Source: an uncultured Candidatus Saccharibacteria bacterium
GTDB taxonomy: Bacteria > Patescibacteriota > Minisyncoccia > Phycocordibacterales > UBA9973
Direction of reading: 5' to 3'
Length of the DNA stretch: 64,000 nucleotides
Assembly (NCBI GenBank): GCA_964398205.1
Contig: CAYNLU010000002.1
Location: forward strand, 1,004-65,003
Shown: positions 1 through 52,664 of the stretch, in pieces
How the letters are laid out: every line of letters starts with the position of its first letter
Numbering within the stretch: the stretch's first letter is position 1
Made by a program: the position numbers and the translations under genes
The notes under the pieces: model-generated
Seen by the model: the letters and a program-made list of their open reading frames with translations, nothing else
The model's database searches: none
What the model was told of the DNA's origin: nothing

Positions 1-310
1 ACTACCTAGTTTGAAAAAAAGTAGAGTATTGGGTGCAATATAATTCTCACCCCATTCATAACCCGCTTTTGTCATTTGTTCTTTTTCAGTATTAAAGTCT
101 TCCATTTTTGAGACCACTAAAACGATATCAATTAATGGTTTTGCTCTCATTCCTGGTATGGAAGTACTTCCAACATGCTCTATTTTTAGAGCTTTGTTTT
201 TAAAAACATCACTCAAAAAAACTTTAATGGAGTTAAATTTATTTACCCAATTTGGATCATATTCAGAAAGAGAATATTTTCTTTTTATATTCTTGTCGAG
301 TTCTTTACTC
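1..310 (-). CDS. GrpB-family (UPF0157) protein; N-terminal part only, gene continues past window start
   Basis: Reverse-strand translation from ATG at 310 gives MSKELDKNIK...EHVGSTSIPGMRAKPLIDIVLVV, the GrpB nucleotidyltransferase-like motif. No stop before position 1. Confidence 0.55.
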
Positions 311-631
311 ATAGTCTTCAAGTGAATAAATATCAAAAGCCATTTCCTCGTATGGATGAACTTTTCTCACAGTCTCGATAACTTCTTTTAAAATAGTTCT
401 AGGAACTATAACCTCGATTTTTTCTTCCTCAACAGCCTCATATCTCAGTGATTCACCAATAGAAGGGTTTGAGTTCTCATTTCCACGATAGCGACCAGTG
501 CCCCTAGTAGAAAAAGAACAAAAATCATAATTACCGATTTTACCCGCCCCCGCATTACCAAGTGTCTCACGCACGATGTCTGTGTGAGTTAATGGTGTAA
601 ATATAATAAGTTTTACATTTTGTGATTGCAT
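305..631 (-). CDS. small PII/CutA-like protein (homolog of the Nif3/YqfO insert domain, COG3323-like)
   Basis: 108 aa. AGAGKIGNYDFCSFSTRGTGRYRGNENSNPSIGE matches the conserved insert-domain motif of YqfO-type Nif3 proteins. Confidence 0.4.
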   Translation of the reverse strand: MQSQNVKLIIFTPLTHTDIVRETLGNAGAGKIGNYDFCSFSTRGTGRYRGNENSNPSIGESLRYEAVEEEKIEVIVPRTILKEVIETVRKVHPYEEMAFDIYSLEDYE

Positions 632-635
632 ATTA

Positions 636-1136
636 TTATTTTTGACTTAGTCTAAGTTTTTCAGCGAGTATTTTTAACTTTTCAGGATCAGCTTTTGGTC
701 CACCACCTGAACAAATCCATCCTTCATATTTATCAAACCAAAACTCTTTACCCGAAAGTACTTGTTGCCATTCTCCACGTTTAAGATTCTCAGTACCGTG
801 CATAGGAACCAATTTTACATGAGCATGGTCAATACCTGTTCCCTCCATGATAACACCCACCCGTCCTGTATCTTCAAAATAATTTTCTAGAATTCCAGCA
901 ACGTATTTGCTTGCAATGATTAATTTTTGTAAAGCCTCGTCTGGCATTTTCATAATATCGCTTCCGTGGTGTTCTTTCGGGATAACACAAGAAAAACCTT
1001 CAGTGTTTGGATCTATTGAAAGAAATGCCATATGCTCATCATCCTGCCAAAAAATTCCAGGGGTATCAAAACGACCCTGTGCGATTTCGCAGAAAATACA
1101 TTTGTTATCTTTAGTTGTTGCGTCGTAGGTTGCCAT
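636..1136 (-). CDS. HIT-family (histidine triad) hydrolase
   Basis: 166 aa. Histidine-triad-like IDHAHVKLVPMHG near the C-terminus. N-terminal CIFCEI typical of HIT proteins. Confidence 0.55.
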   Translation of the reverse strand: MATYDATTKDNKCIFCEIAQGRFDTPGIFWQDDEHMAFLSIDPNTEGFSCVIPKEHHGSDIMKMPDEALQKLIIASKYVAGILENYFEDTGRVGVIMEGTGIDHAHVKLVPMHGTENLKRGEWQQVLSGKEFWFDKYEGWICSGGGPKADPEKLKILAEKLRLSQK

Positions 1137-1142
1137 ATATTC

Positions 1143-1448
1143 TTAGTATCGACTAATGTCGTTATTTTTTAGTTTTGATAAAATTGGGTTCGGTATATTG
1201 TTTAAGACTTGTTTTACTTCTCCGTCAGAAATAATTGTTCTAATGAAAGCTGTGATTTTTTCTAGTAGTTCTTCCTCATAAGTATTTTCAATCAAAGCAA
1301 AGCGTACTGTGTTTTCTTCATCTTGTGCATTTTCAGCCAAAAGTACAAAGTCATTTTCTATAGCATACTTCCGAAGATTACCTCTGAATTTTACTCCGAT
1401 AAGGTTTTCTGTAGCACTATTTACTTGATAAATATCCCAGTACAACAT
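1143..1448 (-). CDS. hypothetical protein (acylphosphatase-like?)
   Basis: ORF in the operon. Start moved to the internal Met to avoid a 38-nt overlap with the upstream gene. Weak resemblance only. Confidence 0.25.
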   Translation of the reverse strand: MLYWDIYQVNSATENLIGVKFRGNLRKYAIENDFVLLAENAQDEENTVRFALIENTYEEELLEKITAFIRTIISDGEVKQVLNNIPNPILSKLKNNDISRY

Positions 1449-1449
1449 A

Positions 1450-2085
1450 TTACAAAATGTAGCTATCAGTATTAAATCCCTCAGCAACAGCTAATTTAAT
1501 AAACTGCTCTCTAGTTTCAGGAGTTTTCTCGTAATGCATTGGTATGACTTTCCCAATCCTTTTAAATTTCTTTGCAAAGTCAAACGCTTCTTGCGGACCA
1601 AATGTATAGAAAGTTCCAACTGGTAGTAGCGCTACATCTACCTCAAGATTTGTTACATCAATACCAGACTCATAAAACATATCTCCTGCAAAATACACTG
1701 TTTTATTGTCAGCAATAATAAGAAATCCGAAGTTTTCTTTTAGTGGAGCAGAAACATTTGGTCCGTGATCTACATTGAAAAACTGCACTTTGATACTATC
1801 CACCACGATCTCATCGCCAACTTTCACTGATACAATTTCTGAAGTCAAAGCTTCTTCCCCAAGTGTTTCAATACACTCTGCGTTTAAATATAGTTTCTTT
1901 GGAGACAATGCCTTTATTTGTTCAAGAGAGAAGTGGTCACCATGAATATGAGACACTAACATTTCATCTACAGTAATTCCATTTAGTTTTTCAACTGGAG
2001 TTTTGTTCCCAATATCAAAAGCGAGGCGAAAGCCTGCCTCTGTTTCAAGAATAAAACCTGATTGTTCAAATTTAGTGAGTTTCAT
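1450..2085 (-). CDS. MBL-fold metallo-hydrolase
   Basis: 211 aa. HIHGDHFS metal-binding motif (HxHxDH). Confidence 0.7.
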   Translation of the reverse strand: MKLTKFEQSGFILETEAGFRLAFDIGNKTPVEKLNGITVDEMLVSHIHGDHFSLEQIKALSPKKLYLNAECIETLGEEALTSEIVSVKVGDEIVVDSIKVQFFNVDHGPNVSAPLKENFGFLIIADNKTVYFAGDMFYESGIDVTNLEVDVALLPVGTFYTFGPQEAFDFAKKFKRIGKVIPMHYEKTPETREQFIKLAVAEGFNTDSYIL

Positions 2086-2086
2086 A

Positions 2087-2641
2087 TTATTTTATCATTT
2101 CACTTAGTACTGATAATGCTTCAGGTAGTTCTGTAAATCCTGCTGATCCATTCAAATGCTTCCCGTTCGGTATAAGAATAAGTTTTCCATCAAGCTGTCT
2201 TGCTATTTCTTCTGCATCAGACACTGGAACATTTGGATCATTGTCTCCGTGAATTACAGCCACATGATCCACTTTATTTTTCATTACTTCCCAGTTGAAA
2301 TCTGCATGCAAAAAATTAACTATTTTATCATTTGTGTTTTGATGACATGGAGCAGATGCAACGATGACACCTTTGAGATTTGGAGAATCAAAATGTTCAA
2401 GGTATCGAAGAATAGCGGTGCCACCCAAACTGTGACCAACGAGGTAAATATCATCGTTTAAATTTTTATCAACATGTCTTTTTATTTCTTCTAGCCATTC
2501 AGAGAGAATCGGCTCATCAGGATTTTGCATAGAAAGAGCACAAGCATATACATCTTGTTTTTCTAGTTCAGCCATAAGCCAAGGTCGCCAGCCACCGTTG
2601 GGACTTCCTTGAAAACCATGAATTAAGAAAACCTTTTTCAT
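2087..2641 (-). CDS. alpha/beta hydrolase (RBBP9/YdeN-like serine hydrolase)
   Basis: 184 aa. GHSLGG nucleophile-elbow motif. Size typical of YdeN/RBBP9 family. Confidence 0.6.
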   Translation of the reverse strand: MKKVFLIHGFQGSPNGGWRPWLMAELEKQDVYACALSMQNPDEPILSEWLEEIKRHVDKNLNDDIYLVGHSLGGTAILRYLEHFDSPNLKGVIVASAPCHQNTNDKIVNFLHADFNWEVMKNKVDHVAVIHGDNDPNVPVSDAEEIARQLDGKLILIPNGKHLNGSAGFTELPEALSVLSEMIK

Positions 2642-2676
2642 AAACCTATTTTATCATTTTTCACTTATTTTTTCCA

Positions 2677-4005
2677 TTATGCTACCAATGTAATTTTCTT
2701 CTCTTTCAGTATCAATCTACTCCTCAAATGTCCCATCAGTTCACGCTTCTCCAGTGGCGTTCCTTCTCTCAGCACATACTTTGCATACTCTCTGGTATTA
2801 ACATCATCCTCGTTGATTGAGTATTTGGGTGTACCTTTAGTTGCAAGTCTCTGGAGTCGATTGAATCTTTTAATCTCTTCTTCTAGCTTCATTCTCATTC
2901 CCAGTTCGTTGATACTGACTTTGTCTATGACTTTAAATAGTTCCTCGATCAGTTCTTCCTCTCGTATATACTTGTTCTTGCAATTCCTGTCTCTCGCCTT
3001 TGAGCAGGAATAGTAGACGTACTTGGCGGTCGTACCATCTTTGAGTTCCTTGTACTTCTCTTGTGCCGTTATTCCTGATTCGCACATTCCACAGGTGAAG
3101 AGTTTGGTAAATGCGAACTCTCGATTTTCTCTCACGATTCTGTCTCGCTTTAATTGCTCTTGGGCTTTTTCAAACAGCTCTTGAGTAATGATCGGCGTAT
3201 GGCTTCCTTGATACCAGTTATCGCTATTCCGTGGATACTCGAATGGTCCATAATAGATGGGCATATTGAAGATACGATAAACCCCTGAGAGCGTCAGGGG
3301 TTTATTTCCTCGGGTATAGAAGTTCAGATCAAATCGTAACCAATTGTATACTTTTCTTCCGCTCCACTTTTCGTACACCACTTTCTCAAACATTTTCTTG
3401 ATGATTGGTGCTCGTTCTGGATCAATTACTATTTGGCACTTCCTATCCATGAGTTTCTGATTCAGGTATCCAAGCGGTGCCATTCCAGGCCATAATCCCA
3501 TCTCCACTCTCGTTCGCAATCCTCGCTTCACATTGATGCCTCGATTATCATTCTCAAGTTTCGCTTGGCTTCCTAATATCATGAGGAGAAATTTCTCATT
3601 CGGATTGTTTCCAAATGTCTGCCCGAAAGTTCTTATCATATGCAATTTACCTGCATCCATCAGGTCTACGATTTTTCCAAGGTCACCTGCATTTCTTGAA
3701 ATACGATCTGGTGCCCAAGTCAGTATTGCATTGAACTTCTCTTGCTTGAGTTCCTCAATGATTTCGTTGAAGACTGGTCGCTGTCCTGTTTCCTTTGCAC
3801 TATGACTCTCACGCTTCATGGTGACCACTTCAAGCCCCTCACGATCTGCCAACTGGAGCATTTCGCTTATCTGGCTATCAATACTCAATACTTGCCGTTC
3901 CTCAGATTCTGTCGATTTTCTTGCGTACAGGCAGTATTTGATCTTCTTTGGTTCGATTACTACTTTCGCTACACCTTGCTCTAGGTTTGGGTTTTCTATC
4001 TTCAT
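2677..4005 (-). mobile_element. large serine recombinase (resolvase/integrase)
   Basis: 442 aa. N-terminal resolvase catalytic domain (YARKSTESEERQ...SIDSQ), central recombinase domain, C-terminal Cys cluster (CGMCESG...YYSCSKARDRNC). Confidence 0.85.
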
Positions 4006-4030
4006 ACCTACATTGATGACGCAACTCGTC

Positions 4031-4393
4031 CTAGGAGTCTAGTGCGTCCCGAGTGCTATCTGTTGGTAACTCAAAGGGGTCAAAATCCTCAATTTCTTTC
4101 CTGAGCCTGTCCATGTTTTTTAGAACTGTTTTATATATTTTTGATATTTCCTTTATCTTTTTTTCATCTAAATTCTCATCACACTCTTCTAAAAAATCGA
4201 CGAGATCATCGTCGATAAAGGATGCCAGTGATATGTATGCCCCGACCAACAACTGTATCCTTTCCTTGATGGCTCGTTTCAAATGCTTTTTTGATTCAGG
4301 AAGAGAAGAGATACGGTTAAAAGGCGTACTTCCGTTCGGTTCGTGATATTTGAAATGCTTGCTGGCATCTATTATTGCTTCAATGTCTTCCAC
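4031..4393 (-). CDS. hypothetical acidic protein
   Basis: 120-aa ORF between recombinase and helicase. No motif recognised. Confidence 0.3.
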   Translation of the reverse strand: MEDIEAIIDASKHFKYHEPNGSTPFNRISSLPESKKHLKRAIKERIQLLVGAYISLASFIDDDLVDFLEECDENLDEKKIKEISKIYKTVLKNMDRLRKEIEDFDPFELPTDSTRDALDS

Positions 4394-4515
4394 ATTTCAA
4401 TGAATGACGCTGATCTTCGTAGAAGTCTAGGGTATCTCCAATTGGCAACTACGCCCTTATATCTCAGTCTTTTTATCTGTCAATTCTGGTGCAGAAATGG
4501 TAAAATCAAATAGCT

Positions 4516-7500
4516 ATGACTACAGTAAAAAACCGTCCAAATGAAACTTCTGCCGAAGTTTTGAGTCCAAATATAAAAGTTTTGAGAGAGTACGAAAAAA
4601 AGATTGTTGATCTTACTCGACGAAACCGTCTCTTGAAATACCCCGCAAAAGCTCGGGCTATTTCTTTTAAAATGAACATCTCTGATTTTGAAGAGAGTTT
4701 CGGTTCTGCTGAAGAAATAGAGATTGAGTTTCCGCATAAAGCAATTCTTCGCGAAGAGGAAGAAGTGGTAGAGGATGCTGAAAAGGATTCATCTATTCCG
4801 CCTACAGACGTTCAAGGTAAAAAGCTTATAACGATGCTTCAAGCTTTGAGGCTTGATAGTAAAAAGAAATTTGAAGAACATGGACTCCATACTCTATACC
4901 TCACGATTGGTCGTGTGCGTTGGAAAGAACCAGGAAATGGTCGTGGCTCAGAAGGAGCACTAGAAGAAAAAGACTATGACTACGATGCCCCACTTCTTCT
5001 TATTCCTGTTTCAGTTGAAGAAACAAAATCTACGCCAAAGAAAACAATAATCAGAACGTATTTAGAAGCGAATGATATTGTTTTTAATCCTGTACTACTT
5101 TTACTCTCTGAATTGGAATACGGGGTTCAGATTTCTGGGATACCCTCATTTGAAGAAATCACCAGTCTCTCTGGGGCATTCGATTCACTTGTCAAAATAT
5201 TAAAAAAATCATTTGCAGAATCTAAAATTAAAAATGATATCACTGACGATATTCGTATCGGTCAGTACTCTTTTTATGGTCAACAAATATACGAAGATCT
5301 AAGAAATAATGAAGAAGCAATTTGTGAACATGAATTTGTTGATGGTCTTATCGGCAAAGGTTCTATCATTCAAGAAGGTTTACCGTCAGACTCACAACCC
5401 GATGATCTTTTGGCTGTTGAAGAAGACTTCACTGTTCTAGATGCCGATGTAAGCCAGATGCGAGTTATTCAGAAAGCTGTTCAAGGTAACAGTCTTGTTG
5501 TTCAAGGTCCTCCTGGAACAGGAAAAAGTCAGACCATCGTTAACCTTGTTTCTAACTTACTTGCTCGTGGCAAAAAAGTACTCGTTGTCTGTGAAAAACA
5601 GGTTGCTCTTGAAGTTGTTTTTAAACGTCTCAAAGATAAAGGACTCGACAAGCTTTGTCTGCCACTTTTTTATCAGAACGCTGATAAAAAAACATTCGCG
5701 AAATCTGTTATAAACGATAGAGACTTTCTAATTGAAGCCTATGGACATAGTAGTTCTAGTGATGATACGGCTCTTGAATTGCGTGAAGGTGTCCATACAA
5801 AACTATGGAATTACGCATGTTCACTGGCTACTGTTGTTGAACCACTCAAGCGATCAGTTCAATGGGTTCACGGAGAGCTTGCTAAAGCACAAGCACTTAA
5901 CTCTGATCGGGCAATACCATGGGGAGAAAGTAATCCACTAGTTATTACTGAGGACACGTATCGGAAAATTCTTACGATTTTGGAAGCTGTTTCTCCAGTC
6001 CTCCACAAGATTTCTGATCCAAAATTTTCAGCATGGAGTCAAATACAAAAAGAAAATTTCTCTCCTGACTTCGCAAGTAGAGTTCGAGTCGTACTTGAGG
6101 ATGCTCATTCTGCGATTGCCGAACTTAATTCTCTACAACCCGAATCAATAGGCTTGGATACAATTCAAGGTCTGCAAAAGAATATGGAGACTGTTGAAAA
6201 ATTGGCACAGTTTGAAACTAGCTTATTGCCAATACCACTACGAGATGAAGTCATTCTTAGTGCTGGAATTCAGATTTTAAAACAAACGGTTGAAGTTATT
6301 TCTGCCTATCAAAAACTTACCGAGAGTTTTGGGGATATCTATAAAGTGCCTACTGTATGGTCTTTGAGTAAGCTAGATGTCCAGTCCGTAAATGACGAGC
6401 GTGAAATTAAAGAGATTCGCACCGCACTCGATTCTGCATCTAAAATTGAAGCGATCCTGTCTTCCTTATATTCAAATGTAGAGGCTTGCAAGAACGACGA
6501 TCTCTTGAATTTACCTATTGCTGAATTAATTCATTATCGAAATATTTTAATTCTCGATCCACTTATTATTGGAATAAAGGATTGGAGCGAAGCATCATCA
6601 TTACAGGCTTCTCTTGGATCACTTACAACATTACAAGCTATTTACCGTAAACTTGAAGAAGCAAATGCGGTATTTGAAAAATGGGCAATTATTCGTGAAA
6701 ACTTAAATAAAGAAGATGTCGAAAAAGTATTTACTGAATTTAATAAAAGGTATCATAAATACCTACATTTTTTCTCCCGTGATTATAGGGCAACTAAAGC
6801 GATAGTTTCAGATTGGTGCAACCTCAATACACCGAAAAAGTATGTAGATATTAATCAAGTTGTTTCTGCTGTACGCGACAGCCAAAACCTTGAAGAAAAA
6901 TTAGGTATTCTTCTTGCTCAATTTAACGAGAAGTACATTGTTTCAGGTAAATCAATAACGGTACACGAAATTCCAATTCTTTCAGGTAGTGCAAAGAATC
7001 TCAGCGAATGGATGCGTCAAGAAAATAAGAGCGAACTCCCTAGTCATCTAAAGCAGGTTGTCGAGAAAAACAGTAGTCCTCGTGCAACGAAAGCTTTTAG
7101 CGATTCGTTAAAAGATTTGGAGGTAGTACTCAGTAGTCATTGGAGCATATTCAGTGTATTTTCTGATCTTGATCGTGTCTCAATTGCAAATGTCGCTTCT
7201 AAATTTGGAGAGCTGACAGAAAATGCTCAGAGCATAATTTCTCTCGAAGAGATTGTGGAAAATTTCTTGATAAAGAATGATTCTTCTCGAACTTTTGGTT
7301 CTCTCAAGAAAGATGTCCAGAATCTTAACCAACTCAAAACATGTTTAGACAAGATTGATCCAGATATTTTCAGCTTATTTACAGAAGAGGAAAATCCCGC
7401 CTCGCTTATAAATAAACGTAAGTCTCTGGAAAAGAATATCCTTGAACTTGAGGATCTCCTCTGGCATATTTCAAAATTGTCTAATTATCAAGGTGATATT

Positions 7501-9417: not shown

Positions 9418-9431
9418 ACTTCTCAGGTAAT

Positions 9432-10931
9432 ATGCCTCTTATATCAAAAACAATATTTATTGACTCACGTAACTGTGCTAAAAATACTTGGCTCAAACTA
9501 CACAAACCTGAGCTTCTGGAGAATTTCGAACTTTCCGAATTTGAAAAGCAACTTATCGAGCAAGGTAATGAAGTAGAGTTATGTGCCCGTGGTCTTTTTC
9601 CTAATGGCGTTGAAGTTATAAGTAAAGGTGAAAATGCATGTCTTGAAACAAGAAAATTGATGGAGGCAAAAACTCCAGCTATTTTTCAAGCTACATTTAT
9701 TGCTGATGGCTTTATTGCTCGAAATGACGTTTTGGTTTATGAACCAAAAAATGATTGCTGGGATCTATATGAAATTAAAGGAACAAATTCTCTCAAAGAG
9801 GGTTCTGACGAGAGAAGTCATGTTGAAGATCTTACATTTCAAGCAATAGTCTTAAAACGCTCAGGTGTTAACCTAGGACGTTCATTTTTAATTCACTTGA
9901 ATAAAGAATACGTACGAACTAGCGGTCTTGATATTGACCAGTTATTTACAATTGAAGATCTTACTGAAACCGTAGCTCAAAGATTTGATGAAATGAGTAT
10001 TTTAATGGAAGGGTCACGTGAGTTTCTCAACCAAGAAACAGAACCTGCGAGTGGTTGTGATTGTCATTATCTAGGACGAAGTAGACATTGTGCCACATTT
10101 CAGTACTCCCATCCCGAAGTGCCAGAATATTCAGTTCATGATCTTTCACGTATTGGAAGTAGTAAAAAGAAGATGGAGTTTTTTGTCGATAATAGTATCT
10201 ACAGTCTTGATGATATCCCTACTGATTATGAGTTGTCTCCCATTCAAACCAACCAATTACAAGCTCATCGAACTAAGACTCCAACTATCGATTTGAGTGA
10301 AGTCAGAAATCAGCTTAGTGTCTTGGAATTTCCTCTATATTTCTTAGATTACGAGACATATGCTCCAGCGATTCCACAGTTTGTGAATTATAGCCCTTAT
10401 AAGCGGATACCATTCCAATTTTCACTCCATATTTTACGTGAACCAAATGGCGGAGTTGAGCATGTTGATTTTCTTCATCCTGAACGTACCGATCCATCAG
10501 AATTGGTCGCGCAACTTTTGACTAAGCATATCCATCCCAAAGGTACAGTTATTTCGTGGAACAAGTCGTTTGAGAAAGGAGTTAATTCTGACATTGCAGA
10601 GCGTCTTCCTGAACATCGAGAAGCAATGGAACGTATAAATAATCAAATGTATGATTTGAAGGATATTTTTTCAAAGCAGTATTACGTTCATCCAGATTTT
10701 CAAGGAAGTGCCTCGATCAAAAAAGTATTGCCAGCCTTAATTCCTGACTTAAACTATAGTGACTTAGTTATCCATGAAGGCGGTCAAGCCTCTGAACAGT
10801 GGTGGTTCATGGTTGCACCAGACACAAGCAAGGAAGAACTTGAGGATATTTCTAAAAATCTTAAAATTTATTGTGGTCTTGATACTTATGCTATGTACGC
10901 AATTTGGAAGCACCTTTATGAAAAAATCTAG
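9432..10931 (+). CDS. DUF2779-like two-domain nuclease: N-terminal RecB/Cas4-like PD-(D/E)xK, C-terminal DnaQ-like 3'-5' exonuclease
   Basis: Start moved to ATG 9432 (MPLISK...), 14 nt after the helicase stop. DVLVYEP...DLYEIKG (D...ExK), Cys cluster CDCHYLGRSRHC, then FLDYETY (DxE) and YCGLDTYAMY (Yx3D). Confidence 0.55.
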   Translation: MPLISKTIFIDSRNCAKNTWLKLHKPELLENFELSEFEKQLIEQGNEVELCARGLFPNGVEVISKGENACLETRKLMEAKTPAIFQATFIADGFIARNDVLVYEPKNDCWDLYEIKGTNSLKEGSDERSHVEDLTFQAIVLKRSGVNLGRSFLIHLNKEYVRTSGLDIDQLFTIEDLTETVAQRFDEMSILMEGSREFLNQETEPASGCDCHYLGRSRHCATFQYSHPEVPEYSVHDLSRIGSSKKKMEFFVDNSIYSLDDIPTDYELSPIQTNQLQAHRTKTPTIDLSEVRNQLSVLEFPLYFLDYETYAPAIPQFVNYSPYKRIPFQFSLHILREPNGGVEHVDFLHPERTDPSELVAQLLTKHIHPKGTVISWNKSFEKGVNSDIAERLPEHREAMERINNQMYDLKDIFSKQYYVHPDFQGSASIKKVLPALIPDLNYSDLVIHEGGQASEQWWFMVAPDTSKEELEDISKNLKIYCGLDTYAMYAIWKHLYEKI

Positions 10932-11213
10932 CTGTTGGTAACCGCACTACACAATAATCTCAATGTAAGCTACAGTACAAAAATACCCTTGAAAATGGTA
11001 TAATTCGTTTACAATTTAATAATAGACCTAACCCCTCAATTTATTGAGGATATGGTCGCCAAATCCGTCCAAAGTAAAGAACTCCTAGTCAGAGTCTACT
11101 TTGGACGGTCATATCTGGAAACGGGTATGGGTATACCTCACGGGGTATATCGGATCTGGCTGGGAGCTTTTTGCTACCTATACGATCCTTCATAACAAAA
11201 CCGTCCAAAGTTT

Positions 11214-11675
11214 ATGAATAAAAAATCACATAGTGAAGAAGTATGGGGCAAAGTCCTCAGTGCACACGAAGAAGTTAAGTACGAGTTCTCAGTCGGAAAG
11301 CAGTATATCAATACATACATTATCATCTGGGCGATCATCAGTTTGCCGTTCGTCTTTGCTGTCGTAGGAATTTTCATATTCCTCATCGCATTCTTGTATT
11401 TGAAGTTCTACTTGCCTAAGGCAAACATCTACGGATTTACCGACAAGCGAGTACTGATCCATCGTGGATTTTTCTCAACTAACTTAATCAGCGTTGACTA
11501 TAAGCAGATCACTGATGTTACTGTCCGTGAATCATTTTTAGATAAGACATTCACAAAAAGCGGACAGTTGTTCATCAACACCGCAGGAACAAGTAAAGAA
11601 GAAATCGTCTTGAGCCACATCGCTCATCCGTACGAGGTTAAAAAGAAGCTCGACGAGTTGAGGGATAATCACTAA
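11214..11675 (+). CDS. bacterial PH-domain (bPH_2/YdbT-like) membrane protein
   Basis: 153 aa. Two hydrophobic helices, then GFTDKRVLIHRGFFSTNLISVDYKQITDVTV...GQLFINTAG typical of bPH_2. Confidence 0.5.
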   Translation: MNKKSHSEEVWGKVLSAHEEVKYEFSVGKQYINTYIIIWAIISLPFVFAVVGIFIFLIAFLYLKFYLPKANIYGFTDKRVLIHRGFFSTNLISVDYKQITDVTVRESFLDKTFTKSGQLFINTAGTSKEEIVLSHIAHPYEVKKKLDELRDNH

Positions 11676-11687
11676 TTGATTCTGAAA

Positions 11688-13169
11688 TTACAATAGTTTT
11701 TTAAACTCAGCAGAATATAATTCTGTTATTTCAGCTACGCTGTCGTCGGCATCAAGATTAAATGTAAAGTTAGCCTCGATAATATCGAGAACATAGAGCA
11801 ATGATTTCTCGGTGTATAGATGCTCTGTTACGGTATCTATTAGTTTACTGAGACTATGATTTAGTAGATCAACTTCTTCTTTGTATCGTTCAAAAAACTC
11901 ACTATAGTTCTCGGTCATATCAATATCAAATATAGTCGATGGTTTTTGAGCCAGATTTTTAAATTCGCAGAGTGTCTTATAGTTCTTAACTGGACTTGCG
12001 TGCTTCTTTGTAAAGAGAAACATATTTGCAAGAGGTAGCAGTACTTCAATCTGTTCTTTATACTCCTGCACAAAATTAACCTCTTCTTTGCAGGTATATA
12101 AATTAGTCCCAGTTATTATCTCTACCACTCTTGGCATTCCCAAGAAATCTTTTTCAAGATTTTGTTTTACCAACTTGCCAGTATCAAATAGCTTTTGAAA
12201 ATACTTTTTGGACTTTTGCAGTTCTGTATACCAAGCCATGAACAAATCCTTGTGACTCTTTTTAGTATTACCATTCCATGTGTCAAAACGCTCACTCATA
12301 CTGAGTGGTGAATATTCATTTACGAATAAGCCATCATCTAGCCACCGAGATAGAGTTTCTTTGACCAATAGCTCAATACTCATGTTTTTACTTTTTGCAT
12401 ATTCTTCCACTATCGACAATATGTTTTCTTCGGTAGCATCGTGTGAAATATGTGTATCGTAAGCTAATTTAAAAAATACATCTTTTATTGGTAGCTCCGC
12501 AAAAAAGTGATGGAGTAAAAACCCGCCTTTTTCCGCCATGGTATTTCTTATTTTCTTCGCTCCGTCATAGTACATACAGGAATAGATACGACTGACAATC
12601 AAGTCTTTCTCCTCCTTACTGAGTTTGTTGCTATCCTTGAATCGTTCATAGAGAAAGACCTGGTCTTCCAAGTATTTGGAATCACTAGCAACCGTATCGT
12701 CAAGGAGAAGTAGGTCTTCTTGTGTTTCTTTTGGTAGGTTATTAAATGTGAATATGTGTAACAGTTTTTGATACTCAAAATAAGTAGATTCTGTAAGCAG
12801 TTTGATACTTTCTTCCTCTGGAATATCTTTTGTGAATTGTTGCATTGCTACCCCCTGAAAGCTTCTTGTACCAGAAAGAAAACTATCAAGCACTCTCTGG
12901 TTTCGTAACAGTGATAGCTCTGACCGATACAAAAACATCTGAGCATCCATTTTCATAGAATTCTCTAGTTGAACAATCTTTATGTATCGGTTGTATTCCT
13001 TTACTTCGAGGGTACGAGGACTCCATGCTTGAGTCAAAACATAGATATCAGAATCAGATAGTGCACCTTTGCCGTTCTTTTCTCTGTAAATATCGTTATG
13101 GACAAGTGCAGTCACTCGCTCAAGCGGTGTGATATTTGATCTTCTAAGTAAATCACTTAAGTTTTTCAT
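11688..13169 (-). CDS. hypothetical 493-aa protein, last gene of the methyltransferase operon
   Basis: No catalytic motif recognised. Tightly packed with upstream genes (2-nt gap). Confidence 0.4.
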   Translation of the reverse strand: MKNLSDLLRRSNITPLERVTALVHNDIYREKNGKGALSDSDIYVLTQAWSPRTLEVKEYNRYIKIVQLENSMKMDAQMFLYRSELSLLRNQRVLDSFLSGTRSFQGVAMQQFTKDIPEEESIKLLTESTYFEYQKLLHIFTFNNLPKETQEDLLLLDDTVASDSKYLEDQVFLYERFKDSNKLSKEEKDLIVSRIYSCMYYDGAKKIRNTMAEKGGFLLHHFFAELPIKDVFFKLAYDTHISHDATEENILSIVEEYAKSKNMSIELLVKETLSRWLDDGLFVNEYSPLSMSERFDTWNGNTKKSHKDLFMAWYTELQKSKKYFQKLFDTGKLVKQNLEKDFLGMPRVVEIITGTNLYTCKEEVNFVQEYKEQIEVLLPLANMFLFTKKHASPVKNYKTLCEFKNLAQKPSTIFDIDMTENYSEFFERYKEEVDLLNHSLSKLIDTVTEHLYTEKSLLYVLDIIEANFTFNLDADDSVAEITELYSAEFKKLL

Positions 13170-13170
13170 A

Positions 13171-13368
13171 TCATCTGTTTTTTCTTAATGCGTTTTCCAA
13201 GAACTCGACCCGTTCTTTAAGTTCTGTGTTGGCTATATTCTTTGAAAGCGTAGAAGTAAGCTTGGCAATCATAGATGCCTGCTTGAGTGACATTTCCTTA
13301 TTCATCACTTTGCGGATAGTATCCGAAAGAATATTATTTATTTCTTCTAGGTTAATTGGTTTAGTCAT
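13171..13368 (-). CDS. hypothetical small protein (65 aa)
   Basis: ORF within operon, 1-nt spacing to neighbours. Confidence 0.35.
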   Translation of the reverse strand: MTKPINLEEINNILSDTIRKVMNKEMSLKQASMIAKLTSTLSKNIANTELKERVEFLENALRKNR

Positions 13369-13369
13369 A

Positions 13370-13744
13370 CTAGTTATTTTCTACGATTTCAAACCAAGCC
13401 CTTACTTCATGAGCCTTGCCACTTTTAATAATGTTTTTGTAGAGTGCAAAAATGACATTCGGAGTTAGTTTTCTTGCCCATGAGTTGATGTCTTTGACTA
13501 GTCCATCTTTCTCAAGTCTCTTATTCCAATCAGTGAGCGTGCCAGTATCAATCTTGTATATTTTTGAGAATTCAAGCTGTGTCTTTATCGCAAGCAATTC
13601 AAATACTGACTCTTCTTCAACACCGAACTTTTCGAGTGCTACTCTTGGTTGCCCTTTAAGAAACGAAGGAAGGGACTTCCAAAGAGCATAGGTTTCGTAG
13701 ACCTGCTTTTTATATGGATCTTTAGAAAAATCTTCTTCCTGCAT
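13370..13744 (-). CDS. small HTH-containing protein (phage terminase-small-subunit-like / DNA-binding)
   Basis: 124 aa. Putative helix-turn-helix around KIYKIDTGTLTDWNKR. Confidence 0.35.
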   Translation of the reverse strand: MQEEDFSKDPYKKQVYETYALWKSLPSFLKGQPRVALEKFGVEEESVFELLAIKTQLEFSKIYKIDTGTLTDWNKRLEKDGLVKDINSWARKLTPNVIFALYKNIIKSGKAHEVRAWFEIVENN

Positions 13745-13751
13745 ATATCAC

Positions 13752-14501
13752 TTAAAGCTTTACTGCTGTCTCGCCAGTAAGCTTTTCAAGCCTTGTGAGA
13801 GATGTTTGCACATACGCCTCATCAAGCTCTATGCCGATACACTTTCGACCCAAGTGTGCACAAGCGACAGCAGTTGAACCACTTCCCAGAAAGGGGTCAT
13901 ATACAACATCACCAACTCTCGTTGAGTTAGGAATTATTTTTCTCAATAACCCAATTGGTTTTTGCGTAGGATGAAGGTTAGATTTATGTGGTCTAGGATG
14001 ATAGATAACATTTCTTGCTTTAGACTGTTCCATTTTGTGTTTACCAAACCATCCATAGGCAATGAGTTCGTACATAGACAAATAGTCTTTTCTGCTCATG
14101 ACTGGTTGATTTTTCAGCCAAATAATCATCTGACTGTAATAGAAACCAGCGGACTTCATACCCAAGCGTAAACTTGGAAACATTAGATCGGCATTAAAGA
14201 TATAGACCGTGTTGTACTCTTCTAGGTGCGGGATAGTCGCACCTAAATACTTACTAGTAAATTGCTCGTATTCTTCTTCTGATTGTAGGTGGTCATTGGC
14301 AATAACTTTTTCATTCTTAACGCCGAGTTTTGAGAATCCTATTTTATTTTCTACATAAGCAACGCCATACGGAGGATCAGTCACAACCGCTCGTATTTTA
14401 TTGTTTCCTATAACTTTTGCGACAAAGGCATTGTCTAGAGAATCGCCACAACCGATAATGTGATCACCAATCTTAAAAATATCTCCTTTATTTATTTTCA
14501 T
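13752..14501 (-). CDS. DNA methyltransferase, beta-class N6-adenine/N4-cytosine (PF01555-like)
   Basis: 249 aa. DPPYGVAY (motif IV) precedes DPFLGSGSTAVAC (motif I). Confidence 0.8.
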   Translation of the reverse strand: MKINKGDIFKIGDHIIGCGDSLDNAFVAKVIGNNKIRAVVTDPPYGVAYVENKIGFSKLGVKNEKVIANDHLQSEEEYEQFTSKYLGATIPHLEEYNTVYIFNADLMFPSLRLGMKSAGFYYSQMIIWLKNQPVMSRKDYLSMYELIAYGWFGKHKMEQSKARNVIYHPRPHKSNLHPTQKPIGLLRKIIPNSTRVGDVVYDPFLGSGSTAVACAHLGRKCIGIELDEAYVQTSLTRLEKLTGETAVKL

Positions 14502-15756
14502 AGATTTTCTTCGCCTTAAGGTTGGTAAACTTTTCCCAACGATCTATAACAATAGTCGCAAAGAGTAGATCTTTTTCGACCCCACGCCACACACGATTTA
14601 ATTCCTCACATGCAATAAGGTCACTACCACTACCAGCGAAGCCAGAAAAGATGATGTGCCCAGGTGCAGAGCATCGCTTGAAGGGCTTTTCATTTAAAGA
14701 AATCGGTTTTTGTGTTGGGTGGAGATAGTTTTGAGTGTTATCTCTTTTAACAAGCCAAAGGTCTATCATGTCTTGCAATTCATCCAAGACCTGATTACCA
14801 GTTGTTACTTCTTGATTAAGAATTTCATTTGCATTCCTGAAGTTTGGATTTAGATATGGCTTACCAAGTGTGCCGTATGTACATGGTTCATAGAGCCTGT
14901 TCCAAGCAATTTTAGGAGTGCAGTTCTGATTCGATTTTATCCAAAGACAAACTCTTCTTTTCTTGATCTGATATTTATCGTATAGAGACTGCGTTAATCC
15001 AATGCTGTTTGGGTCTGACCAGTAAAAGAAGTGTGAGTCTGGCTTAGCAAACTTTTTAGCTGTCTCAATACTTTTACTAATGAATTCAGAGTACTCATCC
15101 TCGCTCTTATTATCTTTGTATTCTCCACCATACTTTCCTCCGTATTCCCAAGAAATATTATAGGGCGGATCACAGAAGACAATATCCGCTAGATCATCTT
15201 TCATGAGTTCTTTGACTTGATCTTCGTTGGTAGAGTCGCCAACTAAAAGGCGGTGCTTCCCGAGTTCCCAAACTTCTCCTAAATTCACTTTTGGTGCCAC
15301 TGTTTCTTTAATGGCTTTCTCAACATCAAAATCATCTTCAACAAGATCCACGTCATCAAATAGATTCTGTAATTCTTCATCTCCAAAACCAACATCAAGA
15401 AGCATGTCCATATCGAACTCTTTTAGTAGTTCTTCATCCCACGACCCAGTATTCTTATTAAGTCTCAAGTTGAGTTCTTTTTCTTCTTCGAGGGTTAGTT
15501 CTCGTGAAGGAATCATGCACTCAATTTCTTCAATACCAAGATCCGCATACACTTTTATGCGTTGTTCACCTCCAATAATAATATTGGCTCTTGAGCCGAT
15601 ATTAAGAACAATAGGCACGACCGTTCCAAATTCCTTAACAGATTTTTGCAAGTCTCTCTTTTCACTCTCACTCAACTTTCTCGGGTTGTATCCGTTATTA
15701 ATTAGGTCTACCAACTTGCGAGTAGTGCTAGACCATGTACGCTTTTGCTTAGCCAT
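14488..15756 (-). CDS. ParB-like nuclease domain fused to beta-class DNA methyltransferase
   Basis: 422 aa. N-terminal ParB/Srx-like (PIVLN...IIGGEQR), then DPPYN and FSGFAGSGSD MTase motifs. Confidence 0.8.
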   Translation of the reverse strand: MAKQKRTWSSTTRKLVDLINNGYNPRKLSESEKRDLQKSVKEFGTVVPIVLNIGSRANIIIGGEQRIKVYADLGIEEIECMIPSRELTLEEEKELNLRLNKNTGSWDEELLKEFDMDMLLDVGFGDEELQNLFDDVDLVEDDFDVEKAIKETVAPKVNLGEVWELGKHRLLVGDSTNEDQVKELMKDDLADIVFCDPPYNISWEYGGKYGGEYKDNKSEDEYSEFISKSIETAKKFAKPDSHFFYWSDPNSIGLTQSLYDKYQIKKRRVCLWIKSNQNCTPKIAWNRLYEPCTYGTLGKPYLNPNFRNANEILNQEVTTGNQVLDELQDMIDLWLVKRDNTQNYLHPTQKPISLNEKPFKRCSAPGHIIFSGFAGSGSDLIACEELNRVWRGVEKDLLFATIVIDRWEKFTNLKAKKIYENK

Positions 15757-15873
15757 AGGGTTTTTATTCAGAAGAGGTTCTTAGCTGCTCTTCTACCCTT
15801 ATTCGTCATTGAATGACAAAATGACAATTTCTTTTTACTTCCTCAAAATGAGTAGCGAGAAAATCTTTAATAC

Positions 15874-15908
15874 AAAAGACCTTTTGCTTGAACGAGCAAA
15901 AGGTCTTT
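15874..15908. terminator. bidirectional rho-independent terminator
   Basis: Perfect 14-bp stem aaagaccttttgc/gcaaaaggtcttt with 7-nt loop, T/A runs on both sides. Sits between the ParB-MTase start and the stop of the 15933-16688 gene. Confidence 0.6.
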
Positions 15909-15932
15909 ATTTCGTCATTTTATATGAAATGA

Positions 15933-16688
15933 CTATTTGTCAGCTCTGAGAGAAAACAGGGCTTTATACCCATACCTTTTAGTGTAATGAGAAATTGGGC
16001 TAGACTTCATACCAAAAAACTTCTTTAAACCTTCATTGAGTTCGTATTTAACATTTCTGCCAAATCTTTTGTCCCATTCTGATTTTGTTAGCGAGCCATC
16101 ATATTCTGCCATTATTCGAAGTAGTGCCCATTTATAATCTGGGTTGTTTGTCTTAGTATTCATAAAACCCATATCTTTGTAATCAAACTTTTGTGGCTTC
16201 ATTCCTGGGTAAGAAACCTTAACAAGGTGTCCATCCAAAAACTTTATATCCAATGCTTCCCATGTAGCATTTTGGGGAAGTAGGTATGATGCAACAACAA
16301 CGCTGCTTTCTTTTTTAGCTGATCCAACATCTAAATCTTCAGGGTTAACAATTCTAACCTCCTGAACCATTCTTGCAGGAATAATATAATCATCTTTATC
16401 TATTGTTGGGAATGAGAATCCAGCCAAAACATCCAACGAGGGTCTTACAGATTCAAATGCGGAATTAGCCATCCCAATGCTTTTTTTCAATGATTCTCTC
16501 ATTGGTTCAAAAGCTTTGAGAGTCTTCTCATGTGCCTCAAAAACAGCCTTCAACGGCGAAACAAGCCTTTCTGCTGTAGCAGGGTCATATCCATCCTTTA
16601 TTGCTTGTTGATATACTAATTCGCCTACGGTCATAGTTTGTATTATATCAAAAATTGGCATTTGTTGGCATTTGAGCTTGCGACCCAC
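15933..16688 (-). CDS. hypothetical 251-aa protein
   Basis: ORF. Weak PD-(D/E)xK-like pattern (D...EALDIK), not convincing. Confidence 0.35.
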   Translation of the reverse strand: MGRKLKCQQMPIFDIIQTMTVGELVYQQAIKDGYDPATAERLVSPLKAVFEAHEKTLKAFEPMRESLKKSIGMANSAFESVRPSLDVLAGFSFPTIDKDDYIIPARMVQEVRIVNPEDLDVGSAKKESSVVVASYLLPQNATWEALDIKFLDGHLVKVSYPGMKPQKFDYKDMGFMNTKTNNPDYKWALLRIMAEYDGSLTKSEWDKRFGRNVKYELNEGLKKFFGMKSSPISHYTKRYGYKALFSLRADK

Positions 16689-16834
16689 AAAGCTAAACTT
16701 CTTCAGTCAGAACGTGCTAGAATAGCCTTACAAGGGTTGAACCCACGGGTACCATACCCGAGTACACCGCCACAACAATCTAGTGTCGGAAGACCCGAGT
16801 ACCTAAATTCTCAAAGTTAAGCTAAAATATATAC

Positions 16835-17335
16835 ATGCAACAGTTTTTAGGTAATGAGTTTAATAAAGAAACCGAGGATGCGATATATTTCTATACGCCT
16901 GTATTTTATGCACTTGATAATTTCTCAGCCCACACAATAGAAATATGGGGCAAAAAATTTCAAACATCTGAACATGCGTACCAATGGAAGAAATTTATAG
17001 ATTCAAATCCTGAGATAGCTGAACAAATATTCAACGCAACAAGCCCTAACGAAGTTAAGAAAATCTCTGATATTCATAAAAGCGAAGCTTCTCGTAATTT
17101 TCCTGATTTAAAACTCAAAATAATGGAAGAAATTCTTCGAGCAAAAACTGAGCAACATGAGAAAGTTAGAATAATTTTAAAAGAAAGTGGAAACAAAACT
17201 ATTGTTGAGAATTCTCCTATAGATAGTTTTTGGGGAGTTGGTCCTGATGGAAAAGGAGAAAATGCCTTGGGCAAGCTTTGGATGAAAATAAGAGATTCTA
17301 AAAATTTTACTAATGACCCCGGTCCCTCGGCTTAA
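16835..17335 (+). CDS. NADAR-domain protein (YbiA-like N-glycosidase family)
   Basis: 166 aa. TSEHAYQWKKF and FWGVGPDGKGENALGKLWM match the NADAR/DUF1768 signature. Confidence 0.65.
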   Translation: MQQFLGNEFNKETEDAIYFYTPVFYALDNFSAHTIEIWGKKFQTSEHAYQWKKFIDSNPEIAEQIFNATSPNEVKKISDIHKSEASRNFPDLKLKIMEEILRAKTEQHEKVRIILKESGNKTIVENSPIDSFWGVGPDGKGENALGKLWMKIRDSKNFTNDPGPSA

Positions 17336-17433
17336 TTTATCGAAACCTAATCTTGATAGTAAAAATTACTCCTCCCCCTATCTTCTTCAAAACCCTTCGT
17401 TTTTTAATATCTAAACTATGCTAAAATGTATCT

Positions 17434-18910: not shown

Positions 18911-19297
18911 ATGGATAAAAATATAGAAAAATTTATTTTAAACTCTACAGCTAAAGCTTTAGCTACTTTAGGTAAAAACGGACTCAACGTCGTCCCAGTA
19001 TCTTCTCTCAAAGTAGTAGATTATGAGATTTGGCTTATAAATTACTTTATGGATAAAACTGTAGAGAATATTAAAGAAAATAATAAAGTTGCTTTAGTTT
19101 GCTGGAATAAAATGTTCGGTTATCAAATCAAAGGCGAAGTAGAATATTTTGAAAACGGAGAAAAATTCGATGAGGCAGTAATTTGGATTAAAGAAATCTT
19201 GCCTGACCGTATAGTCAAAGGATTGCTCGTGCTTAAACCGGAGGAAATCTTCGATATTGCCCCGACTAAAAATACGAAAGATTTCAGATACGAATAA
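18911..19297 (+). CDS. pyridoxamine-5'-phosphate-oxidase-like FMN-binding split-barrel protein
   Basis: 128 aa. Pattern typical of PF01243-like proteins. 4 nt after photolyase. Confidence 0.45.
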   Translation: MDKNIEKFILNSTAKALATLGKNGLNVVPVSSLKVVDYEIWLINYFMDKTVENIKENNKVALVCWNKMFGYQIKGEVEYFENGEKFDEAVIWIKEILPDRIVKGLLVLKPEEIFDIAPTKNTKDFRYE

Positions 19298-19299
19298 AT

Positions 19300-19333
19300 T
19301 TAAAAATCACAAGTTTAAACTTGTGATTTTTAA
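19300..19333. terminator. bidirectional terminator hairpin
   Basis: Perfect palindrome aaaaatcacaagttt/aaacttgtgattttt between convergent genes. Confidence 0.55.
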
Positions 19334-19350
19334 ATTTAATTTTTATATCT

Positions 19351-51896: not shown

Positions 51897-52664
51897 TTAT
51901 CTGTATCCCATTCTCACAAATTGGTTTTGGTAAGCCTCTTTGTGAATACCGAAGTCGGCGTAGTCAGCATCGCTGAACTCACGCCAATAATAAATTTTTC
52001 CTTCCCAGTTGGGCTGAGATGGCCCTTGGTCGACTAAGGCTGCAGCTTCGGATTGCGGAAGTCTCTTCCATTTTCCAGTAGCTCCTCCCCAACCCGACCA
52101 TTTTGAACATCTTGCGTACGTATAGACTTCTCTAACATACACAAAGTTCTCCCCAGGAGGCATTCTTTCATAAATCACATACTCCTGGGGAGGATTTTGT
52201 AATTTATTTTCGGGAGATACCCACTCCCTTTTTGGAGCAGGTTGCTCCATTTTTTTTAAAACCTTCTCCGGGGTCTTTTCCCCTTCGTAAGCTTCTAAAA
52301 AAACCAATAAATTACCACAGACTGTGGCGTAAATTTTTCCATCCGAACTTCGGACTACTTTCGTAGTCCCCTCAAGCTCACAAATGTGAGCCATCCCGTT
52401 AGGAGAAAAATTTAAAAACAATCCTCGGCCATTAAGACCGATTTGGGGGAAAATTTCCCCCAAATTCTGAGTTTCCTCAGAAGAATTTATCTTTTTAAAA
52501 AATGGCCCGGTTTCACCCGGAACCTTTTGAGAGCCGTAGTAGGCTCTTTCTTTCCCTACAAGGAAACGGGTTCCTTGTGGTTCATAACTATACCCAGATT
52601 GGGCAGTAGTTATTGTTAAAGAAAAAAATAAACCGAACGCTATTATAAAAAAAACTTTTCTCAT
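51897..52664 (-). CDS. secreted hypothetical protein
   Basis: 255 aa. Signal peptide MRKVFFIIAFGLFFSLTITTA. Confidence 0.4.
   Translation of the reverse strand: MRKVFFIIAFGLFFSLTITTAQSGYSYEPQGTRFLVGKERAYYGSQKVPGETGPFFKKINSSEETQNLGEIFPQIGLNGRGLFLNFSPNGMAHICELEGTTKVVRSSDGKIYATVCGNLLVFLEAYEGEKTPEKVLKKMEQPAPKREWVSPENKLQNPPQEYVIYERMPPGENFVYVREVYTYARCSKWSGWGGATGKWKRLPQSEAAALVDQGPSQPNWEGKIYYWREFSDADYADFGIHKEAYQNQFVRMGYR

Follow-up and report, generated by a model that had tools for sequence, protein, structure and literature searches.

The question raised by this locus is whether the comparatively G+C-rich beginning of an otherwise A+T-rich chromosomal stretch is a mobile element and, if so, where it ends and by what route it arrived. 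The stretch analyzed, hereafter the window, consists of 64,000 nt of contig CAYNLU010000002.1 (assembly GCA_964398205.1, positions 1,004-65,003) from an uncultured Candidatus Saccharibacteria bacterium. A first-pass annotation had suggested that its first 17.35 kb are a horizontally acquired integrative element carrying a serine recombinase, with the right junction in the window, near a 146-nt non-coding segment (16689-16834), and a left boundary that might lie upstream of the window. The idea of such an element is borne out by the junctions and by comparison with a family of relatives: window positions 1-16770 are in all likelihood the larger part of an integrated mobile element of ~17.8 kb, extending from about -1006 to 16770. 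The family to which it belongs is widespread in bacteria of the candidate phyla radiation (CPR), where a large serine recombinase inserts the elements at the 3' ends of tRNA-Ser genes. It is apparently undescribed so far, as no description of a CPR element of such kind was found in the literature.

At least 173 species-level CPR genomes encode relatives of the recombinase (59-98% identity), and homologs at 76-93% identity are annotated from Uhr-, Nomura-, Kaiser- and Niyogibacteria and from Paceibacterota. The scan considered one genome per species and retained 80 loci at 59-98% recombinase identity, whose maps were made with tblastn and ARAGORN; L-numbers below are labels of compared contigs and family loci. 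Counted from the tRNA, the order of the parts is proximal arm, cargo bay B, recombinase with a 120-aa partner, cargo bay A, a LOOT RNA leader with a bPH gene, a core operon and the distal arm. Members have conserved end arms, the core operon and a LOOT RNA in common, and the two cargo bays vary. The features that define the ends are the following:

16695-16770, minus strand: distal terminal arm, conserved inward from the exact junction base
16767-16770: crossover core GCGG/CCGC
16775-16803, minus strand: relic proximal arm of a sibling element (recombinase clade of ~73% identity), 29 nt, outside the junction
1-312, minus strand: 5' part of the GrpB-family gene that closes cargo bay B (L001 12330-13541)
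L001 13649-13734: tRNA-Ser(TGA), adjoining the tRNA-proximal arm

The right junction lies at 16770/16771, inside the 146-nt segment named in the first-pass annotation, and is set there by the outermost 24 nt of the distal arm, which occupy 16747-16770 and read GCGGTGTACTCGGGTATGGTACCC on the minus strand. Inside 16770 the sequence is conserved in more than 50 family members, and outside it the sequences are unrelated among members. The arm is found in the window, in L031-L035 and L055 and at 43 further metagenome junctions with unrelated outer flanks. In the former group, the common sequence begins at the junction with GCGGTG(T/C)ACTCGGGTATGGTACCC and continues inward to the ATG of p233, the first gene of the core operon; on its way it takes in AGCTTTGTGGGTCGC, here in a second copy, and then the tandem AAATGCCAAC-AAATGCCAAT. 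The 43 metagenome junctions were retrieved with a 23-mer of the distal arm; the arm starts with GCGGTG, and nothing related stands to the left of it.

The left junction lies ~1.0 kb beyond position 1, at the 3' end of a tRNA-Ser gene in near-identical metagenome contigs, and the boundary is therefore upstream of the window, as the first-pass annotation had considered. Three contigs (L001, L002, and L004) extend the window leftward; L001, with 6 mismatches to the window in 12641 nt, runs on past the window start through the remainder of the GrpB gene, a terminator hairpin, a 61-nt proximal arm and the tRNA-Ser, to ~1.09 kb on the left. In L001 this arm, AGCTTTGTGGGTCGCACTTAGTACATAACTAAATGGGTCATCAAAACTAACAGGTTGTCAA(T), fills the space between the terminator hairpin and the 3' end of tRNA-Ser(TGA). 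It differs hardly at all among the window lineage, L028, L029, L033, L036 and others, alike for the anticodons TGA, GGA and GCT, and it varies systematically with the recombinase clade. The two junctions share only GCGG(A/T)G.

The intact tRNA-Ser, whose 3' end points toward the element, is what is expected at one side of a tRNA-targeting genomic island, and the arrangement recurs across the family: at 50 of the 78 loci the recombinase is followed downstream by a tRNA-Ser on the opposite strand as the first tRNA, 116-8616 nt away, with the anticodons GCT (17), TGA (16), GGA (12) and ACT (5). Within the ~60% clades there are a few exceptions, which face tRNA-Asp, Gln, Asn, Arg or Trp. No displaced tRNA-Ser 3' fragment is present in the window by a fuzzy search allowing up to 5 mismatches, a result to be expected if the enzyme is a serine and not a tyrosine recombinase. 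The stretch at 16732-16754, taken at first for a tRNA 3' end, is the conserved terminal arm of the element and not a tRNA remnant, and neither ARAGORN nor Rfam (E<=1) reports a tRNA or a fragment of one in 16689-16834. Fragments of this kind do occur outside two relatives: in L142 (contig Ga0208375_1000018), ~50-70 nt outside the distal arm, the tRNA-Ser 3' fragment TTCAAATCCCTCCGCCTC is inverted relative to the tRNA-Ser at the other end of the element, and in L035 the fragment TGCGGAGGCGGTGAGAA lies ~230 nt outside the distal arm. Both are probably scars of earlier integration or rearrangement.

Both arms contain a 16-nt exact direct repeat, AGCTTTGTGGGTCGCA, at 16679-16694 in the window and at 13587-13602 in L001, ~45 nt from the tRNA-Ser. 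It is conserved family-wide, and in a circular form its copies would flank the crossover ~140 nt apart; it may be a binding site for an accessory protein. A reading of the 16-mer at 16679-16694 as an inverted terminal repeat was rejected, since it is a direct repeat inside both arms.

Just outside the junction, the 29-nt relic arm at 16775-16803 aligns locally with the arms of L073, L031, L069, L078 and others. Among 2000 shuffles none reached the score obtained for L073, L078, L069, L031, L079 and L083, and p<=0.001 was found for L066 and L085 (nine comparisons, from 0/2000 shuffles to 0.001). The relic accounts for one of the direct repeats pointed out in the first-pass annotation, all of which are indeed present: ACCCGAGTAC, at 16756 and 16793, has one copy in the distal arm and one in the sibling relic outside the junction, while GGCATTTG, at 16657 and 16667, is a conserved 10-bp tandem repeat that covers the -35 part of the promoter before the core operon. 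A second, tandem element within the window was rejected, since the window holds only one recombinase, one LOOT and one distal arm, and the relic arm is all that is present besides.

One sign of movement comes from two relatives of the window element, L023 and L025, which show 0 mismatches over 15232 nt; starting 13 nt inside the tRNA, which is a different tRNA-Ser(GGA) gene in each, the identity is down to 26%, and the host genes beyond also differ. Stacking is also seen: of 38 distinct distal junctions, 14 have the proximal arm of a sibling directly outside them, the sibling recombinase being visible in three, and these junctions indicate that elements are arrayed in tandem. Among conspecific contigs the window element is identical to 6 nt inside the tRNA, which is tRNA-Ser(TGA) in L001, L002 and L004 and tRNA-Ser(GCT) in L003. 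The flank with the NADAR gene is the same for TGA- and GCT-joined contigs. L002 and L013 are one contig, reading NADAR, element, tRNA-Ser(TGA)-DUF5652-RuvX; L003 (13649-13779) and L011 are likewise one contig, of which L011 matches the window at 100% identity across 14.8 kb. The last base in common is exactly where L008 stops, and breaks in several other contigs lie close to it. The TGA/GCT alternative could represent two strains, two co-resident elements, an inversion or an assembly fork, and for this reason the window's own left tRNA-Ser may be of either isoacceptor.

The same data bear on two alternatives. In the first, the region at the tRNA-Ser would be variable but non-mobile and vertically inherited, with a domesticated recombinase and a composition that follows from gene content. 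The island is fixed in all conspecific contigs sampled, and in the Nomurabacteria locus L021 a related recombinase lies near the same DUF5652-RuvX-tRNA_bind-PilM neighborhood, both of which would fit; yet identical 15.2-kb copies stand in unrelated flanks, the arms follow the recombinase clade and not the host, and L028, with a recombinase 98% identical and core genes ~75% identical in DNA, is joined to another tRNA-Ser isoacceptor, so that we regard this alternative as quite improbable. In the second, mobility would be limited to the recombinase, perhaps together with the 120-aa gene (2650-4500), in the manner of an insertion sequence, and the rest would be host genes or unrelated islands. 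This would suit the DNA similarity to L021, which is mostly limited to the recombinase, the 120-aa gene and the LOOT region, and the fact that these two genes are highest in cross-genome identity. Against it, the DNA identity of L023 and L025 spans 15.2 kb and not 1.5 kb, the sharp limits of conservation are at the two arms, 17.8 kb apart, and not beside the recombinase, and just 20-45 nt around the recombinase ORF (open reading frame) are conserved, with no repeats there; the proposal is very hard to sustain.

The composition of the window changes where the junction lies. The G+C content (GC) is 0.380 at 1-16770 and 0.316 at 16771-64000; in 1-kb steps it is 0.35-0.43 up to 17 kb and then mostly 0.28-0.34. 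The best single change point by maximum likelihood, 16800, coincides with the junction found independently by sequence comparison, which supports the reading of 1-16770 as an integrated element. Island and host genes differ in per-gene GC (Mann-Whitney p=1.9e-7) and in GC at third codon positions (GC3; Mann-Whitney p=6e-6), and the tetranucleotide correlation with the host part is 0.75-0.84 in 1-16 kb and 0.96-0.985 elsewhere. The shift announced in the first-pass annotation is thus upheld, including its A+T-rich host genes: the host part encodes a photolyase, two ribonucleotide reductases and PolA, together with UvrA, UvrB, a penicillin-binding protein and PilB. Its end, placed there at 17.35 kb, must be moved to ~16.8 kb, because the NADAR gene (16835-17335) has a GC3 of 0.251 and is host DNA outside the element. 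The segment 16689-16834 has a GC of 0.432, compared with 0.10-0.39 in host intergenic regions.

The claim that island genes prefer G/C-ending codons holds for one part of them. Compared with the host GC3 (mean 0.229, sd 0.05), the recombinase reaches 0.456, the 120-aa ORF 0.413, the bPH gene 0.526 and the core block at 11.7-16.6 kb 0.31-0.37, and it does not hold for the helicase (0.289), the DUF2779 gene (0.270) and the five genes at 305-2641 (0.23-0.27, host-like, p=0.14). The host-like part is in favor of a non-mobile region, and the value of the recombinase, 0.456 against a host mean of 0.229, speaks against it. That recombinase and 120-aa gene are most deviant in GC3 would agree with mobility of these two genes alone. 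A reading of genes 1-2641 as host DNA from their GC3 was rejected, since the conserved arm beside the tRNA-Ser places them inside the element.

The element is carried by a recombinase of the large serine type, which had been recognized at the same place from the sequence and in which Pfam finds all three domains:

2677-4005, minus strand: large serine recombinase, 442 aa
4031-4393, minus strand: 120-aa protein, just upstream of the recombinase

The Pfam matches are Resolvase (3.6e-20, residues 26-170), Recombinase PF07508 (3.7e-13) and Zn_ribbon_recom PF13408 (5.6e-9). The catalytic motif Y27-A-R-K-S31 is readable in the translation and aligns to the N-terminus of SPbeta SprA, which is also the nearest solved structure (E=2e-10). 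The protein matches the PHROG 95 integrase at 1.6e-63 and stays below the NCBIfam cutoffs for CcrB (125, cutoff 900), CcrA (70, cutoff 700) and CcrC (62, cutoff 900). A homolog of the 120-aa protein (40-76% identity) lies directly upstream of the recombinase in ~20 family members; it has no family match in Pfam, PADLOC and PHROG scans and may be a candidate accessory or directionality factor. In four loci (L044 1423-2685, L056 11364-12626, L057 6696-7958, and L058 11364-12626) a second large serine recombinase of ~54% identity sits tail-to-tail right after the first, an arrangement that recalls CcrA/CcrB pairs.

The second constant part of the element is an operon of six genes, convergent with the bPH side and transcribed in the order p233, ParB-methylase, methylase, p124, p65 and p493:

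16642-16694, minus strand: promoter-like site of the core operon, ATGCCA-18-TATAAT with a TG extension, from a promoter scan
15933-16634, minus strand: p233, first gene of the core operon
14488-15756, minus strand: ParB_N-N6_N4_Mtase fusion (Pfam)
13752-14501, minus strand: N6_N4_Mtase (Pfam)
13370-13744, minus strand: p124, 84-95% identity across members, with a helix-turn-helix-like segment
13171-13368, minus strand: p65, 75-97% identity across members
11688-13169, minus strand: p493, family-specific and all-helical

The six genes keep the same order in L023-L026, L028, L033, L035, L037, L049, L050 and L055 and in metagenome loci. In L023-L026 the corresponding products are 250 aa, ParB-methylase, methylase, 124, 64 and 495 aa, and past the core follow differing cargo on the opposite strand, the LOOT RNA, the recombinase, more cargo and the tRNA-Ser. 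Both methylases, in the same order and at 73-96% identity across family members, show readable DPPY and FxGxG-type motifs and match PADLOC MTase_II and PHROG 498. They had been counted as cargo, a label that does not suit them, as they belong to the conserved core, and that is right for the helicase, DUF2779, bPH and the hydrolases at 1-2641. The conserved start of p233 is the ATG at 16634, and hence the non-coding stretch before it is not the 146 nt of 16689-16834 but the 200 nt of 16635-16834. The C-terminal domain of p233 resembles, on weak evidence, a winged helix of the OmpR/PhoB type. The promoter-like site overlaps the tandem repeat AAATGCCAAC AAATGCCAAT (16654-16673), kept in all members examined, which is followed by the 16-nt AGCTTTGTGGGTCGCA (16679-16694). 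The sole Pfam match of p65 and p124 is a sub-threshold MarR. The predicted fold of p493 is all-helical (predicted local distance difference test, pLDDT, 86), with no informative structural neighbor.

A phage origin has to be weighed here, namely that of a decayed prophage or a phage satellite with a phage integrase and early-gene methylases, which has lost its structural genes or obtains them from a helper phage. PHROG matches for the integrase, the methylases and the ParB-like proteins would agree with it, and ParB_N-methylase fusions are typical of phages; the helix-turn-helix of p124 might recall small terminase subunits. We nevertheless hold it to be unlikely. No capsid, portal, terminase or tail match was found to window proteins or in the precomputed Pfam lists of ~100 mapped members, and no other packaging gene either, the PHROG matches being only to integrase, methylase, ParB and a membrane moron. 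Moreover, IMG/VR (2.9 million viral contigs) holds neither a p493 relative nor the distal-arm 23-mer, only distant ParB-methylases, and p493 has no structural match among viral proteins.

Upstream of the recombinase, on the opposite strand, lies a third part common in the family, the LOOT RNA, with the gene that follows it:

11025-11151, plus strand: LOOT RNA (Rfam RF03000), with a leader that extends to 11213
11214-11675, plus strand: bPH_2 membrane protein, first ORF past the LOOT leader (Pfam bPH_2 3.4e-9)

LOOT is typed in Rfam as a gene and small RNA (sRNA), and here it stands upstream of an ORF inside an element family. It is not known to have been described outside metagenomes or to have a function. 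The window copy scores 81.2 bits, the gathering score being 46.4, and matches the full model (1-121). The 5' strand of its central stem, CCGTCCAAAGT (11065-11075; partner strand 11098-11108), is exactly repeated at 11201-11211, ending 2 nt short of the bPH ATG (11214). A second complementarity, which likewise co-varies, connects the central loop (11076-11088) with positions 11160-11172, shortly past the 3' end of the Rfam motif. The leader folds far better than its shuffles (z=-5.3). A covariance model of our own, built from four copies, gives 42 matches in 83 sources, most of them in bay A on the cargo strand, opposite to and upstream of the recombinase. Of the distinct copies, ~22 of 37 are followed by an ORF that begins 49-68 nt downstream of LOOT, and in those the 9-14 nt preceding the start codon repeat the 5' strand of the central stem. 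The repeated word differs by locus and co-varies with the stem; the longest common word averages 7.9 nt with the locus's own LOOT and 5.6 nt with other loci (Wilcoxon p=9e-5). A co-varying copy of a stem strand at the start codon suggests a cis-acting leader, and the pattern points to LOOT as a putative cis-acting switch on translation of the downstream cargo gene. The leader pattern is also seen at L021, L023, L027, L028, L031, L037, L045, L054, L055, L092 and others.

The remaining genes of the window element are the cargo, in two bays on either side of the recombinase:

305-2641, minus strand: five small genes of bay B, which lies between recombinase and tRNA-proximal arm
first gene of 305-2641, minus strand: 108-aa protein, weakly P-II-like
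636-1136, minus strand: HIT hydrolase (Pfam)
1143-1448, minus strand: 101-aa protein
1450-2085, minus strand: MBL-fold hydrolase (Pfam)
2087-2641, minus strand: Ser_hydrolase (Pfam)
4516-9417, plus strand: bay A, fusion of DUF4011, superfamily 1 (SF1) helicase and MTES_1575/DUF559 nuclease, 1633 aa (Pfam)
9432-10931, plus strand: bay A, DUF2779 protein, 499 aa (Pfam DUF2779 4.7e-41)

The bay B modules travel on their own. L102 (6160-9263) carries in the same bay the Ser_hydrolase and the 108-aa plus GrpB module at 95% nucleotide identity, without MBL-101aa-HIT, while its recombinase is only 61% identical to that of the window in protein and 68% in DNA and its arm is different. Modules shared in spite of a distant recombinase indicate that cargo is exchanged between clades, which may explain the host-like codon usage of bay B. 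L040 (11342-11890) is a further locus with travelling bay B modules, and the MBL-fold gene has a faint precomputed match to Anti-Pycsar Apyc1. The small bay B genes might act in nucleotide signaling or in counter-defense. In bay A, the helicase-nuclease matches PADLOC PDC-S37 (5e-291) and Hhe (5e-151) and shares with Hhe, ProA and PDC-S37 the architecture of DUF4011, SF1 helicase and Vsr-like nuclease; it falls below the NCBIfam equivalog cutoffs (ProA 912 bits, cutoff 1500; Hhe 707, cutoff 2000) and is paired with DUF2779. From its domains it is a candidate anti-phage protein. The bPH product also matches PHROG 3707, "membrane-flanked domain". In the tandem neighbor of L163 (3020-9800), with no recombinase within 7.7 kb, the apparent cargo comprises a bacteriorhodopsin-like protein, CIA30, a class IV aminotransferase, DUF305, a 6-phosphogluconolactonase-like protein and ClpP.

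Two features of the host part can be added. A 255-aa ORF at 51897-52664 on the minus strand (GC 0.421, GC3 0.375) is its sole strong GC3 outlier; it has no Pfam match, and no Rfam family is found at that site. At 19273-19334 on the plus strand, at the end of the PNPOx gene, an A+T-rich hairpin gives a sub-threshold match to Rfam Spd-sr07 (45 bits, gathering score 55) and is most likely just a terminator.

Among known systems, the element resembles in habit the staphylococcal cassette chromosome (SCC; SCCmec, CcrAB/CcrC), likewise a large serine recombinase cassette at the extreme 3' end of a housekeeping gene that is preserved, with variable cargo around a conserved module, no transfer genes of its own and tandem stacking, because in both each insertion regenerates a usable target. 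It differs from SCC in its target, tRNA-Ser and not rlmH, its CPR hosts, a non-Ccr recombinase, unrelated core genes and the RNA leader. The tycheposons of Prochlorococcus and Islander-type elements also use tRNA 3' ends, including tRNA-Ser, and are modular, with tandem junctions, in streamlined genomes without classical transfer systems (bioRxiv 10.1101/2020.12.28.424599). However, 910 of 937 tycheposons use tyrosine recombinases and leave a displaced tRNA fragment of tens of nt (bioRxiv 10.1101/2020.12.28.424599), and many have recognizable replication genes, whereas the present element has none, employs a serine recombinase and shares a core of 4-6 nt. With phage integrases (SPbeta SprA, TP901-1, phiC31, and Bxb1) the recombinase has in common the three-domain architecture and the catalytic motif; unlike in those systems, long, asymmetric arms are combined with a tRNA end as target, and phage genes are lacking.

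A scheme for the movement of the element can be proposed from these comparisons. Starting from a circular form, the 442-aa recombinase would insert the element by conservative site-specific recombination, with, on one side, a compound element site, made of the distal arm (16695-16770) and the 61-nt proximal arm, and, on the other, a tRNA-Ser gene at its extreme 3' end. Crossover would take place within GCGG/CCGC, that is, the last two bases of the acceptor stem, the discriminator base and one base beyond, a position that would leave the tRNA intact and only 4-6 nt common to both junctions. In the circle the arms would be joined as ...CAGGTTGTCAAT-GCGG-TGTACTCGGG..., the predicted attP being ...AACAGGTTGTCAAT GCGG TGTACTCGGGTATGG... 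and the predicted attB the tRNA-Ser end ...CACCGCCTCCGC/CACAACAATCTAGTG... (slash, junction). The methylases would shield the incoming DNA from host restriction, p233 may autoregulate the core promoter through the AAATGCCAA repeats, LOOT would switch translation of the first downstream cargo gene, and the helicase-nuclease may defend the host against phage. No relaxase, coupling protein or type IV secretion gene is matched by Pfam or NCBIfam in any element ORF, and no recognizable transfer vehicle is encoded; natural transformation or hitch-hiking may be guessed at.

Several observations weigh against an integrated mobile element. The left junction is outside the window and is taken from contigs that are 99.95-100% identical in the overlap; the bay B genes, the helicase and DUF2779 have a host-like GC3; and the TGA/GCT alternative could be an assembly fork between co-resident elements and not movement. 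Neither an empty site nor an excised circle was found for the species, all ~24 contigs with identical flank proteins (found by identical Ser_hydrolase, NADAR and 108-aa proteins) being occupied, and the photolyase has no relative in the one-genome-per-species contigs from which an empty site might be read. The attP-like junctions L124, L134 and L163, considered as excised circles, look like tandem neighbors. No replication, packaging or transfer function can be assigned to any core protein. Lastly, characterized large serine recombinases act on quasi-palindromic sites of ~40-50 bp with a central dinucleotide, usually inside protein genes. In the present sites the crossover is confined to GCGG, and three points are atypical: the arms are conserved over >60 nt each, no dyad symmetry is apparent in them by eye, and the host-side half-site is not conserved.

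In spite of these points, an integrated element of the tRNA-Ser-targeting family remains the preferred reading, and its consequences reach beyond the single locus. In CPR bacteria, whose genomes are tiny, few mobile elements are known and genetics in culture is lacking, and a family with base-precise ends in >100 species would explain the spread of defense, transport and hydrolase genes among them. For annotation, this means that the genes at 1-16770 belong to a mobile element, with the methylases as core and the helicase and hydrolases as cargo, and that the chromosome begins with NADAR and continues rightward. For the orphan LOOT RNA the family supplies a genomic context and a cis-regulatory model that can be tested, and a recombinase that recognizes a universal tRNA-Ser end would be a possible engineering tool for CPR bacteria. 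On the broadest view, to which we give about an even chance, these would be CPR-wide and hitherto undescribed serine-recombinase cassettes that use any tRNA-Ser as a landing pad, stack in tandem, swap their cargo and control it by a LOOT cis-switch, with long asymmetric arms and tolerance for the host half-site, and they would form a major route of gene flow without plasmids or conjugation.

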